Assembly (NCBI GenBank): GCA_041649575.1
Contig: JBAZMW010000002.1
Coordinates: 202,792-234,791 of the forward strand
Direction of reading: 5' to 3'
Length of the DNA: 32,000 nucleotides
Source: Patescibacteria group bacterium
Lineage (GTDB): Bacteria > Patescibacteriota > Patescibacteriia > 2-01-FULL-39-33
Of this stretch, positions 18,553 to 20,629 are shown in pieces (positions within the stretch are counted from its first letter, which is position 1; each line of letters opens with the position of its first letter). A program made the position numbers and the translations under genes. The notes below the pieces were generated by a model. It worked only from the letters and a program-made list of their open reading frames with translations. It was not told the origin of the DNA and did no database searches.

Positions 18553-18847
18553 AAAAAAAGCAGCTCCGCGAGTTGTGTTTATGCGACAGCACAACTCTAC
18601 GGAGCTTTGCAGGAGGAAAAGCCATGAGACTGGGAGGGCTCACGGACTTCTCGGTGGTGGTCAAGATCGGATTCGATCAAAACCTCCTTGGTGATAGACT
18701 ATTCCGGTGTCAGCCAGAGCCGGTGTTACCTTACCTGGGCTGTTTGGGCGAAATCCTTGCGGATCTCGCCATCTGTGACTGAATCGAACTCTCTCTGCTA
18801 CGGACACGACCTGGCTGACACCGGAAGATCTGGGTCGAATGTACTTA
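18553..18847 (-). ncRNA. Candidate structured ncRNA of unknown family (~295 nt), antisense to the ybaB-recR direction
   Basis: Bounded by a minus-strand promoter (18881-18853) and an intrinsic terminator (hairpin 18562-18606 plus U7 at 18559-18553). GC-rich. Has a 16-bp long-range helix and a GNRA-capped 10-bp hairpin with a strand-specific G.U pair. Confidence 0.55.
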
Positions 18848-18852
18848 CTTAA

Positions 18853-18881
18853 AAGATAACAAGCTATAAATAACTTGTCAA
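18853..18881 (-). promoter_or_regulatory. Sigma70-type promoter of the antisense RNA
   Basis: Minus strand TTGACA (18881-18876), 17 nt, TGtTATCTT (extended -10, hexamer 18858-18853). Confidence 0.6.
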
Positions 18882-18895
18882 GTGAAAATCCGATC

Positions 18896-19495
18896 ATGAA
18901 CTATCCCAAGTCAATTCAAAATTTAATCAATCAGTTTGCCAAACTCCCCAGTATCGGCCCCAAAACCGCCGAACGGCTGGTTTTTTATTTGCTGAAAAAA
19001 TCGGAAACCGAACTGCGTCAATTCGGGGAAGCCATCGAACAAGCGAAAAATAATGTCAAAATCTGTGCTGTCTGCTTCAATTTCGCCGAAACCAATCCCT
19101 GCCAAATCTGTTCTAATCCCCATCGCGATCAACAAATCATCTGTGTCGTCTCTAAGCCGCAAGACATTATCGCGCTAGAAAAAACCGGCTCCTATTCCGG
19201 CGTTTATCATGTTTTGGGCGGAAATATTAATACCTTAGACAACCTCGGCCCGGCAGAAATAAGAACTAGTGAATTGGTAAGTAGAATAAAAAAACAAGGA
19301 GCCAAAGAAATCATCTTGGCTCTCAACCCCGATCTCGAAGGCGAAACCACTTCGCTTTATTTAATAAAACTAATCAAACAACTCGCGCCAAAAAAAATCA
19401 CCCGCCTGGGGCGCGGCTTGCCAATGGGAGCCGACCTGGAATATGCCGATGAGATCACCCTGGAAAACGCCTTAAAAGCCAGACAAATATTGTAA
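18896..19495 (+). CDS. recR: Recombination protein RecR
   Basis: MNYPKSIQNLINQFAKLPSIGPKTAERL (HhH), C4 zinc finger CAVCFNFAETNPCQIC, Toprim domain. ATG 18896 gives the canonical 199 aa, so the TTG at 18875 in the ORF track is probably too early. Confidence 0.95.
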   Translation: MNYPKSIQNLINQFAKLPSIGPKTAERLVFYLLKKSETELRQFGEAIEQAKNNVKICAVCFNFAETNPCQICSNPHRDQQIICVVSKPQDIIALEKTGSYSGVYHVLGGNINTLDNLGPAEIRTSELVSRIKKQGAKEIILALNPDLEGETTSLYLIKLIKQLAPKKITRLGRGLPMGADLEYADEITLENALKARQIL

Positions 19496-19496
19496 T

Positions 19497-19545
19497 AAAA
19501 AAATCGACCCCGCACCTAGTAGCTTGTTAGCTTTCGGTGCGGGGT
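19497..19545 (-). terminator. Intrinsic terminator of the GC-rich island transcript (also the nearest hairpin behind recR)
   Basis: ACCCCGCACC (19507-19516) / GGTGCGGGGT (19536-19545), 10-bp stem. On the minus strand it is followed by cgaUUUUUUU (19503-19497). On the plus strand no U tract follows. Confidence 0.7.
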
Positions 19546-19667
19546 ACGCTATGATACTTAGACTATACTAATAGTAGGTTCCCCTACCTTTTGCCAGACG
19601 AATGTGCATAATAGCCCTCCTTTCTGCCAGTGGGCCTTCCTACCCACAGGACGTTTGTACAAATGCG

Positions 19668-20051
19668 TTAGGCGGCGGTCGCGGCGGCGGTCGCGTAAAA
19701 TTCGTAACAACCGTCGAGCCTTTCCCCCCGACCCATGAAATACATATATGGGTTGTTGGTACCAGTGCGGTAGCCCAATGGTTCGCACGTCCCTTGATCG
19801 AGGACGGTTTCCATGGTTCCGTTTACCTCGACCAGAATGAAGCGGCTCAAGGTGGCGTTGGGGATGGCATGTGGTTCCTGTGGCTCGATGACGTACACCA
19901 CGAATTTCCCTTTCGCGTTAAGCGCGCTCGCCGGTTTGCGTATTTCGAGCGGTAAATCCATCGAGCAGTTGCGCAACCGGCGGATGACCTCCGCAGCCGG
20001 TAGACGACAGGTCTCGCGGCTGCACATATTTACCAACTGAAGACGAAACAT
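19668..20051 (-). CDS. Orphan 127-aa protein encoded in a GC-rich island, no family recognised
   Basis: GAGGAG (20065-20060), 8 nt, ATG 20051. G/C-rich codon usage (CGC, GCG, CCG, GTC, ACC) unlike neighbouring AAA/TTT-rich genes. Has its own promoter and terminator. Starts MFRLQLVNMCSRETCRLPAAEVIRRLRN and ends ...CYEFYATAAATAA. Confidence 0.55.
   Translation of the reverse strand: MFRLQLVNMCSRETCRLPAAEVIRRLRNCSMDLPLEIRKPASALNAKGKFVVYVIEPQEPHAIPNATLSRFILVEVNGTMETVLDQGTCEPLGYRTGTNNPYMYFMGRGERLDGCYEFYATAAATAA
19671..19694 (-). repeat. Perfect 12-nt tandem duplication at the 3' end of the orphan ORF
   Basis: GGCGGCGGTCGC x2 on the plus strand (19671-19682, 19683-19694), encoding ATAA-ATAA just before the stop codon. 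Confidence 0.9.
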
Positions 20052-20107
20052 GTGGATCACTCCTCATGTAGCGCTAGCCCTATTGCCAGCGACTGTCGCT
20101 GTCAGTG

Positions 20108-20162
20108 ACAGGTACAGTATTTAGGGGATAATTAGTCTTTATGCCATAAATACTACACCTGT
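20108..20162 (-). promoter_or_regulatory. Long hairpin in the 5' leader of the orphan ORF
   Basis: Minus-strand RNA ACAGGUGUAGUAUUUA / UAAAUACUGUACCUGU, 16 bp including two G.U pairs that would be A.C mismatches on the plus strand. 23-nt loop. Confidence 0.5.
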
Positions 20163-20181
20163 CTTCAAAGTACTGTTTTAT

Positions 20182-20210
20182 AATATATCATATATATAAA
20201 ATTTTGTCAA
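20182..20210 (-). promoter_or_regulatory. Sigma70-type promoter of the GC-rich island
   Basis: Minus strand TTGACA (20210-20205), 17 nt, TGaTATATT (hexamer 20187-20182), embedded in a very AT-rich tract. Confidence 0.6.
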
Positions 20211-20276
20211 ATATATTTATTAATAATAAATGTAAATATTAATAAATATATCTAAAATTAAATAAAATATATTTAT

Positions 20277-20315
20277 CTAAACAAAACACACCCGACTTTT
20301 TAATCGGGTGTGTTT
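20277..20315 (-). terminator. Intrinsic terminator after rplU
   Basis: Minus strand AAACACACCCGA-uuaaaaag-UCGGGUGUGUUU followed by UGUUU. Confidence 0.7.
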
Positions 20316-20326
20316 GAAAAAATAAT

Positions 20327-20629
20327 TTATATTTTTACTATCTCCACTTCTGTCAGCCGCTGCCGGTGGCCAAACTTCTTGGCTTGTCTGGTTTTGGGCT
20401 TATACTTAACGCCCGTTACCTTTTTGGTCCTGCCTTCGCCAACAATTTTAACCTTTGCTTTCTGCTCCAAAAAAGGGTTGCCGAGCTGCAAATTATCGCC
20501 ATCAGCCAAAAGCAAAACGTCCAAATCCGCCTCGGCGCCAACGGCTGTTCTGATTTTTTCCACTTTAATTTTATCTTTTTCTTTCACTAAATATTGTTTG
20601 CCACCCGTCTTTATTACCGCGATTTTCAT
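20327..20629 (-). CDS. rplU: 50S ribosomal protein L21
   Basis: MKIAVIKTGGKQYLVKEKDKIKVEKI... and ...GEGRTKKVTGVKYKPKTRQAKKFGHRQRLTEVEI are canonical bL21. Confidence 0.95.
   Translation of the reverse strand: MKIAVIKTGGKQYLVKEKDKIKVEKIRTAVGAEADLDVLLLADGDNLQLGNPFLEQKAKVKIVGEGRTKKVTGVKYKPKTRQAKKFGHRQRLTEVEIVKI

Follow-up and report, generated by a model that had tools for sequence, protein, structure and literature searches.

The spacer between recR and rplU in a Patescibacteria group bacterium (GCA_041649575.1, contig JBAZMW010000002.1) holds a complete minus-strand transcription unit. This raises the question of what the unit encodes, how it came to lie there and what role its leader RNA plays. 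The window analyzed here is a stretch of 32,000 nucleotides (nt) of that contig (positions 202,792-234,791, forward strand), and coordinates of the locus are given within it. The unit (20210 to 19497) lies between recR, on the plus strand, and rplU, on the minus strand (20327-20629), both confirmed with Pfam. It is probably an autonomously transcribed accessory-gene cassette that this lineage gained between the stop codon of recR and a terminator formerly shared by recR and rplU. In its leader, a hairpin named P1 would stabilize the messenger RNA (mRNA), and one arm of P1 would be recognized together with a linker. A preliminary description, made from the DNA letters alone, had already proposed a unit that is autonomous and foreign to this spacer. 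This proposal holds, given the spacers of 40-47 nt found in relatives, the patchy distribution of the gene family in unrelated contexts and the recurrence of promoter and leader in front of homologs.

A complete transcription unit

Transcription of the cassette would start from a sigma-70-type promoter (20182-20210, minus strand) that consists of TTGACA (20210-20205), a 17-nt spacer and a TG-extended -10 element, TATATT (20187-20182). This site matches 11 of the 12 hexamer positions in addition to the TG and obtains the best score in a scan of 5 kilobases (kb), which confirms the promoter proposed in the preliminary description. With the transcription start set 7 nt past the -10 element, from the promoter alone, the inferred start is at about 20175 and the leader runs for about 124 nt to the ATG, very close to the initial estimate of about 125 nt. 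This strong extended -10 promoter would drive an mRNA of about 680 nt.

Reading of the sequence also confirmed the Shine-Dalgarno (SD) sequence GAGGAG (20060-20065, minus strand), located 8 nt before the ATG at 20051, and the open reading frame (ORF) of 127 codons that follows (19668-20051, minus strand). Downstream of the stop codon come a 3' untranslated region (UTR) of 122 nt with local hairpins (19546-19667, minus strand; about 120 nt had been proposed) and an intrinsic terminator (19497-19545, minus strand) with a 10-bp G+C-rich stem, a 19-nt loop and U7. The stem of this terminator is the one first described and is perfect: its arms ACCCCGCACC/GGTGCGGGGT (19545-19536 and 19516-19507; inverted repeat I13) are 100% complementary, and T7 lies at 19503-19497. 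The long 3' region is thus present as described but is not a feature of the family. It is specific to this genome, the other members having their terminator close behind the stop codon. This 3' UTR carries a mini-ORF of 13 codons (MHIRLAKGRGTYY, 19609-19568, minus strand), absent from other family members, whose ATG is located 5 nt after a strong SD sequence, AAAGGAGGG.

A leader RNA better conserved than the protein

The preliminary description called the leader structured, which is correct but incomplete, since the leader is the most conserved and most novel part of the cassette. The same order of elements recurs among homologs: promoter, hairpin P1, single-stranded ACAGCGACAGU, hairpin P2, an A-rich stretch with the SD sequence, and the ATG. 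In the window, the structured element extends over 20051-20166 (minus strand). P1 (20107-20163, minus strand) is a stem of 17 bp, found both as inverted repeat I3 and in the minimum-free-energy fold, with its 5' arm at 20163-20147 and its 3' arm, which bears the near-invariant UACUGUACCUG, at 20123-20107. The linker (20092-20102, minus strand) corresponds to invariant columns of the leader alignment and resembles the 5' arm of P1. P2 (20072-20091, minus strand) is formed by CGCUGGC and GCUAGCG around a loop AAUAGG. Furthermore, the promoter architecture TTGACA-17-TGnTAnnnT is located 5' of the leader in eight of nine leaders examined.

Comparison of upstream regions indicates nucleotide-level conservation of the leader even between members that have only about 40% protein identity. 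Mean pairwise nucleotide identity reaches 78% for the leader core (P1 3' arm and linker) and 67% for the whole leader, for 50% in the coding sequence (CDS). A gapped pattern, fitted to the seven leaders then known, was scanned over metagenome and viral contigs and added three family genes located right behind a leader (loci L098, L101 and L104; hidden Markov model (HMM) E = 1e-38 to 1e-44). The covariance model built from the leaders, R1, scores eleven loci at 83-107 bits and the chance pattern matches at 18 bits or less; these chance matches are the L099/100/103/105 group, L102 and the viral L106. R1 matches the whole span of the element in the window (86.6 bits, E = 2e-20), where it is the sole copy.

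In one of the loci scored with R1, which the gapped pattern had also recovered, the leader does not precede a family gene. L097 (11395-11850, minus strand of the locus) carries a full promoter and leader (98 bits) in front of ORFs of 36 and 93 amino acids that are unrelated to the family, and there is no family gene within 13.4 kb of this leader. Its neighbors are a DUF1905 gene and carotenoid-biosynthesis genes (polyprenyl synthetase, phytoene synthase, amine-oxidase-type desaturase). The 93-amino-acid ORF was considered as a hidden family member and rejected (hhalign probability 0.3%; six frames without HMM match). Because the leader precedes unrelated small ORFs in L097, promoter and leader appear to be a portable expression module that travels with the gene through unrelated contexts.

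The structure is supported by covariation. RNAalifold on the ten leaders gives a P1 of 19 bp (17 bp in the window) and a P2 of 7 bp, and 11 of the 26 pairs are kept by changes on both sides. Overall, 93.8% of the alignment cells are paired, compared with 83.5 +/- 1.3% in shuffles, none of the 500 reaching the observed value, and 33-49% with slid partners. For P1 (helix 1), 96% of the cells are paired and 7 of 19 pairs have changed on both sides; for P2 (helices 2 and 3), the values are 87% and 4 of 7. The one-sided changes in P1 are all from A-U to G-U or from C-G to U-G, and they keep the pairing on the sense RNA strand only.

Searches for known RNA families were negative. Rfam 15 gives no match on 19497-20210, either at gathering thresholds or at E <= 10, and no match at E <= 1 on the leaders of six other loci. 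No covariance model of OLE, GOLLD, ROOL, HEARO, raiA, RNase P, tmRNA, SRP, 6S or the riboswitches of Rfam 15 has a match. ARAGORN finds no tmRNA in the cassette region, and a literature search with strings of the leader motif retrieved PCR primers only. From these comparisons, the leader appears to be an undescribed structured RNA, absent from Rfam and better conserved than the protein. The strong RNA-level constraint suggested in the preliminary description applies to the leader and not to the ORF, which shows protein-level selection.

This leader can be compared with the orphan leader motifs of the Weinberg/Breaker type. Like these, it is an element of about 110 nt in the 5' UTR that combines covarying stems with unpaired invariant nucleotides and that precedes one gene family, for the most part in metagenomic sequence. 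Unlike these, it has its invariant nucleotides in a stem arm and a linker instead of junctions or loops, it shows no recognizable expression platform and the downstream genes suggest no ligand. Covarying stems and invariant nucleotides would also be expected of a riboswitch aptamer, but the architecture is limited to two hairpins, neither a terminator before the ATG nor an SD-sequestering helix was found, and the cargo is an unnamed family or the unrelated ORFs of L097.

How the leader may act

By analogy with known leaders, the most likely mechanism would be the stabilization of the mRNA by a hairpin near its 5' end, combined with sequence-specific recognition of the invariant stretch. Stem-loops at the 5' terminus of mRNAs are given as established stabilizers (Emory, Bouvet and Belasco 1992, as cited in PMC3997798). 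In L092 and L095-L098, which represent five lineages, P1 begins 1-5 nt from the inferred 5' end. From such a position, P1 would shield the mRNA from 5'-end-dependent decay, and this is the role that we prefer for it. The leaders of ompA and papA in E. coli and those of ermC and aprE in B. subtilis belong to these 5' stem-loop stabilizers. The leader shares with them a long hairpin at or near the 5' end, here the inferred one, of the mRNA, an accessible ribosome-binding site downstream, a strong promoter as partner and the portability of the module, which has a different cargo in L097. In the predicted ensembles, the SD sequence is largely accessible and most of the stretch preceding the AUG is unpaired (mean unpaired probability over the 20 nt 5' of the AUG: 0.39 in the window, 0.47-0.85 in other leaders). 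Sequestration of the SD sequence and a pseudoknot between the P2 loop and the SD sequence were both rejected, since there is no consistent complementarity.

Unlike in these stabilizers, the 3' arm of P1 and the 11-nt linker are invariant across lineages with only about 40% identity between their proteins, and a pure stabilizer needs no such thing. This suggests that the arm and linker are under constraint beyond base pairing. They would be recognized sequence-specifically by a trans-acting factor. Alternatively, the 3' arm may toggle into an alternative hairpin with the linker and thereby tune translation or stability. Indeed, the linker CAGCGACAGUU is a near copy of the P1 5' arm CAGGUACAGUA and therefore the 3' arm can form an alternative hairpin with it (ACUGU.AC.CUG[GAAA]CAG.CG.ACAGU). 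This hairpin can be formed in all ten leaders, and the leaders of the window and of L095 carry insertions that extend its stem with the pairing preserved.

Several points weigh against the reading that we prefer. The distance between the inferred 5' end and P1 is 12 nt in the window, unlike in known stabilizers, and about 20 nt in the L088/L089/L104 group. Both exceed the few unpaired nucleotides that 5' stabilizers reportedly tolerate. The start of transcription, from which these distances are counted, is itself placed by promoter prediction only. Stabilization accounts for the hairpin but not for a 3' arm and linker that stay invariant while the 5' arm drifts. The alternative hairpin is far weaker than P1 (-5 to -10 kcal/mol versus -17 to -31 kcal/mol), its one compensatory pair (U-A to C-G) comes from a single clade split, and six of its eight pairs never vary and are hence uninformative. 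Moreover, the leader alignment (A3) contains ten sequences from about seven lineages, so its covariation statistics are modest. Regarding the acquisition of the cassette, no recognizable mobility machinery was found, be it integrase, transposase or terminal repeats, and the 'empty' site is defined by only about five relatives from three lineages, all of them distant.

Two other explanations give the switch the leading role. In the first one, which is possible although we would not favor it, promoter and leader are a portable riboregulatory two-state module for varied small cargo genes in Patescibacteria-like genomes, and a factor such as a P1-cutting ribonuclease or an RNA-binding protein picks the partner of the 3' arm. 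In the second one, which seems rather unlikely, expression is controlled by a small ligand or by a protein, perhaps the product of the cassette itself, that displaces the equilibrium of P1 with the alternative hairpin. The near duplication of the 5' arm by the linker, the conservation of the alternative hairpin with its compensatory pair and stem extensions, and the contrast between an invariant 3' arm and a drifting 5' arm, as expected of a strand with two partners, speak for such a riboregulator. However, no terminator-type or SD-sequestering platform was found between leader and ATG, the competing helix leaves out the SD sequence, which is largely unpaired in every ensemble, and P1 is the more stable structure by 10-25 kcal/mol. 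The downstream genes give no metabolic clue either. In addition, strict autoregulation by the encoded protein is unlikely on this comparison because the L097 leader has no family gene nearby. Since most pairs of the alternative hairpin are invariant and its stability is far below that of P1, we treat the two-state switch as a hypothesis and not as a finding.

The conserved sequences could also act as DNA. The inverted repeat CAGGTACAGTAA ... TTACTGTACCTG and the ACAG repeats would then be an operator at which a repressor blocks transcription past the promoter, for instance one of the LexA type (CTGT-N8-ACAG). We consider this improbable. The half-site-like sequences are invariant, the element is near the promoter and the CTGT-N8-ACAG spacing occurs in L092 and L096-L098, but on the sense strand all eight one-sided changes of P1 lead to G-U pairs, which would be mismatched half-sites in DNA, and the compensatory changes cluster in the distal stem. 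Furthermore, the P1 loop between the arms varies in length, the spacing from CTGT to ACAG is 8, 9, 11 or 19 nt depending on the member, and the element does not overlap the promoter but is located some 10 to 80 nt past the inferred start. A LexA (SOS) operator in particular was rejected, the 8-nt spacing being found in four leaders and 9, 11 or 19 nt in the others, at a site downstream of the inferred start.

Probable acquisition of the cassette between recR and rplU

That the cassette was gained by this lineage, as we propose, is supported by the comparison of the recR-rplU synteny suggested in the preliminary description. RecR homologs that are 70-72% identical share the gene order dnaB, recR, then, on the minus strand, rplU, a DUF192 gene, a glycosyltransferase gene and tgt. 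The recR-rplU spacer is 831 nt long in the window. In L083-85, L086 and L087, it is limited to 40-47 nt with one bidirectional terminator hairpin, and in L081/L082 it is a 321-nt spacer with an unrelated ORF of 63 amino acids. In the window, a terminator hairpin located next to rplU (20284-20315, either strand; inverted repeat I9) has perfect arms of 12 bp, with A and T runs on its flanks. This hairpin is likely to be the bidirectional terminator that recR and rplU had ancestrally, and the insertion has its upstream edge there. Because the spacer of relatives is reduced to one hairpin and a hairpin of the ancestral type is kept beside rplU, the inserted segment appears to correspond to about 19497-20283.

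This segment includes an extremely AT-rich tract located 5' of the promoter (20211-20283, minus strand), the 200 nt from 20100 to 20299 having a G+C content of 21%. This tract holds the internal AT-rich repeats D1 and I1-I2 and may have an UP-element-like role. The loci of the relatives contain nothing similar to the inserted segment. The same is true of 80 loci obtained by a recR-anchored search of GTDB species genomes, all of which are at most 59% identical; the closer RecR relatives were drawn from a large protein collection and not from these genomes.

The base composition of the ORF contrasts really but moderately with that of its surroundings. Its G+C content is 56%, 13 points above that of the whole window (42.8%), and the genes of the window are at 42-49%. 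For recR, the actual value is 44% and not the roughly 33% first given, so that the initial contrast was overstated. The start of recR is not the TTG at 18875 but the ATG at 18896, where it is annotated and conserved (199 amino acids).

Among the other members of the family, the gene neighbors differ in every genome: a RhuM-family gene, a Band_7 gene and a response regulator in L088 and L089; an NYN-domain gene before and uvrB after the cassette in L104; and, in L098, the order priA, def, fmt, hpf, cassette, four unknown ORFs, tyrosine integrase and csrA. Since the neighbors differ in this way and the G+C content of the family CDS exceeds that of its locus in seven of eight cases, the pattern looks like that of a sporadically acquired accessory gene.

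The reverse scenario, an ancestral presence of the cassette at this site followed by its loss from the relatives, is quite improbable in our view. It would agree with the distance of the relatives and with the lack of insertion scars, repeats or mobility genes. However, three lineages of relatives (L083-85, L086 and L087) have a clean spacer with a single hairpin and another insert is found in L081, the family, very rare, has another context in every genome, the CDS is G+C-rich for this window and the ancestral-type terminator is intact beside rplU.

Regarding the means of this acquisition, no integrase, transposase or clear terminal repeat had been seen at first. This was upheld for the whole 32-kb window for both enzymes, and the flanks of the cassette show no meaningful repeats, no terminal repeats and no target-site duplication. 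Within the family, an integrase is found only in L098, about 3 kb downstream of the cassette. Integron cassettes are promoterless and have at their 3' end an attC with RYYYAAC / GTTRRRY core sites, with an integrase nearby. An attC was rejected here, as the hairpin is located at the 5' end behind its own promoter, GTTGCTT and GTTACTT do not fit GTTRRRY and the window has no integrase. The cassette resembles phage morons in having its own promoter and terminator, in its location between conserved genes, in its atypical G+C content and in its absence from relatives. Unlike for morons, the window holds only cellular genes and no phage genes. Moreover, IMG/VR contains no true match to the cassette and PHROGs no match to the protein; the first, exact version of the leader pattern has no viral match in IMG/VR. 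A DNA pattern of the protein motif gave two chance matches there, out of frame inside an ORF of 294 amino acids of a viral contig.

Some other elements border the cassette in particular loci. In L098 (5449-5711; also in L093, 1-170), the cassette promoter is directly preceded by a sequence resembling a tRNA 3' half, GGGTCCCTGGTTCGAATCCAGGACGCGGAGCA, which itself follows a full group I intron (83 bits). This tRNA fragment was considered as an attachment site in L098, but a tRNA gene interrupted by the intron is likelier than a scar of integration, since the full intron precedes it; the 5' exon was not identified and ARAGORN calls no tRNA at L098 5449-5711. After the cassette terminator and before the next TTGACA promoter, L093, L094 and L097 share an intergenic block, TTTTCTTTTA..CAAAAC.CCAATTTCTCAAA..TCCATACT..ATCAAAGGA. 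L092 and L096 have another block in common, TCTAACCTCCCCAACCATGCGG, 3' of the cassette terminator. L093 also shows a weak lysine-riboswitch match at 2230-2367 (27.3 bits for a gathering score of 30, E = 7e-4).

The gene encodes a protein of a rare unnamed family

The preliminary description presented the ORF as an orphan. This is not the case: an exhaustive HMMER search of 1.84 billion cluster representatives identified homologs in about 19 clusters. These proteins have 106-206 amino acids, are 37-44% identical and align mostly over their full length; the protein of the window matches the family HMM with E = 2e-43. A repeat protein of 1059 amino acids among the matches is spurious. By comparison, a word-indexed search of 5.8 billion proteins retrieved only the 127-amino-acid protein itself. 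The family alignment (A1) shows seven invariant residues (R12, R16, L17, P34, L73, E81 and G87), a near-invariant motif S-R-E-T-x-R-L-P and indels that always preserve the frame. Amino-acid motifs are kept even though the nucleotide identity of the CDS is merely 50%. Between the homologs L088 and L089, which have 82% amino-acid identity, the differences at codon positions 1, 2 and 3 number 13, 13 and 41. The ORF thus encodes a real protein under protein-level selection. This call is based on the existence of homologs and not on ORF length, because 9% of shuffles of like composition give a stop-free run as long.

It is very improbable that the whole 680-nt unit is instead a large structured non-coding RNA with the ORF as a by-product of stop-poor G+C-rich sequence: a fold far below shuffled controls (z = -6.5), ORFs overlapping on both strands, ambiguous codon statistics, that frequency of long stop-free runs and the empty word-indexed and Pfam searches made this the first hypothesis, but it was overturned by the full-length homologs with frame-preserving indels from exhaustive HMMER, the third-position bias, the amino-acid motifs kept at low nucleotide identity and the AlphaFold model, and Rfam has no match either.

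With AlphaFold, the predicted local distance difference test score (pLDDT) is only 39 for the single sequence but reaches 87.9 when the 19-sequence family alignment is supplied, the predicted template modeling score then being 0.82. The model predicts a compact, mostly-beta domain. In agreement with the preliminary description, no known family was recognized. None of the 19 family members has a match in Pfam, PHROGs or PADLOC, the family has no sequence match in the PDB and NCBI gives it no name. Foldseek with the model found no significant match in the PDB and BFVD (best E = 0.22 and 0.096, respectively; template modeling scores of at most 0.38). The family thus resembles DUF-type families of small proteins, with about 125 amino acids, conservation, a confident predicted fold and no known function. 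Unlike them, it belongs to no named family and is much rarer (about 20 clusters among the 1.84 billion representatives).

The annotated NCBI form of the protein has 119 amino acids and begins at M9 (20027). This start is probably eight codons too short and the ATG at 20051 the correct one, because homologs align from residue 1 and an SD sequence precedes this ATG. At the other end of the gene, a perfect tandem duplication of 12 nt (GGCGGCGGTCGC x2, plus strand, 19671-19694) encodes a C-terminal ATAAATAA tail that stands in place of the FYC ending conserved in the family. In L101 (310-730), the family gene is frameshifted into two pieces that match the HMM, which corresponds to a pseudogene or to an assembly error.

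A second minus-strand unit and the dnaB-recR spacer

A second compositionally foreign unit had been proposed on the other side of recR. It is real as a unit with promoter and terminator. It shares no sequence with the cassette, and R1 finds no second copy in the window. Located in the spacer that separates ybaB from recR, this unit (18553-18881, minus strand) consists of a TTGACA-17-TG-TATCTT promoter (18881-18853), about 300 nt of G+C-rich body (fold z = -7.4) and, near 18610-18553, a long terminator hairpin with U7. No convincing ORF preceded by a ribosome-binding site was found in it, and a permissive scan of 371 nt gave no Rfam match. We regard this unit as a candidate small RNA that would be antisense to the spacer of ybaB and recR.

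The relatives, in which ybaB is missing, have dnaB-recR gaps of 610-1108 nt in which no gene is called and whose sequences are mutually unrelated (L083, 2393-3500; L081, 2777-3500; L087, 2891-3500; L086, 1-1405). The ORF lists of the L083 and L081 gaps show only short or low-complexity ORFs. L083 also has a minus-strand TTGACA-17-TG promoter (3380-3352) in the same position relative to recR as that of the second unit. The gap between dnaB and recR has the appearance of a hot spot where variable non-coding sequence is inserted.

Biological significance

To our knowledge, Patescibacteria (Candidate Phyla Radiation) are largely uncultured and almost nothing is known of their post-transcriptional gene regulation. 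The locus described here adds a rare protein family that has neither a name nor a solved relative and whose fold is predicted with confidence, and a clean promoter-to-terminator cassette, probably gained, in a housekeeping spacer without recognizable mobility machinery. It also adds an RNA leader motif outside Rfam that is supported by covariation and better conserved than the protein encoded downstream, and whose covariance model R1 is usable for scanning metagenomes. For annotation, the probably too short NCBI start codon of the cassette gene calls for caution. If the promoter-leader module fronts many cargo genes, it would represent a shared mechanism of expression or regulation for accessory genes in these organisms. 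If the two-state reading is true, mobile accessory genes of bacteria that are very difficult to study would carry along with them a cis-regulatory RNA of a new class.

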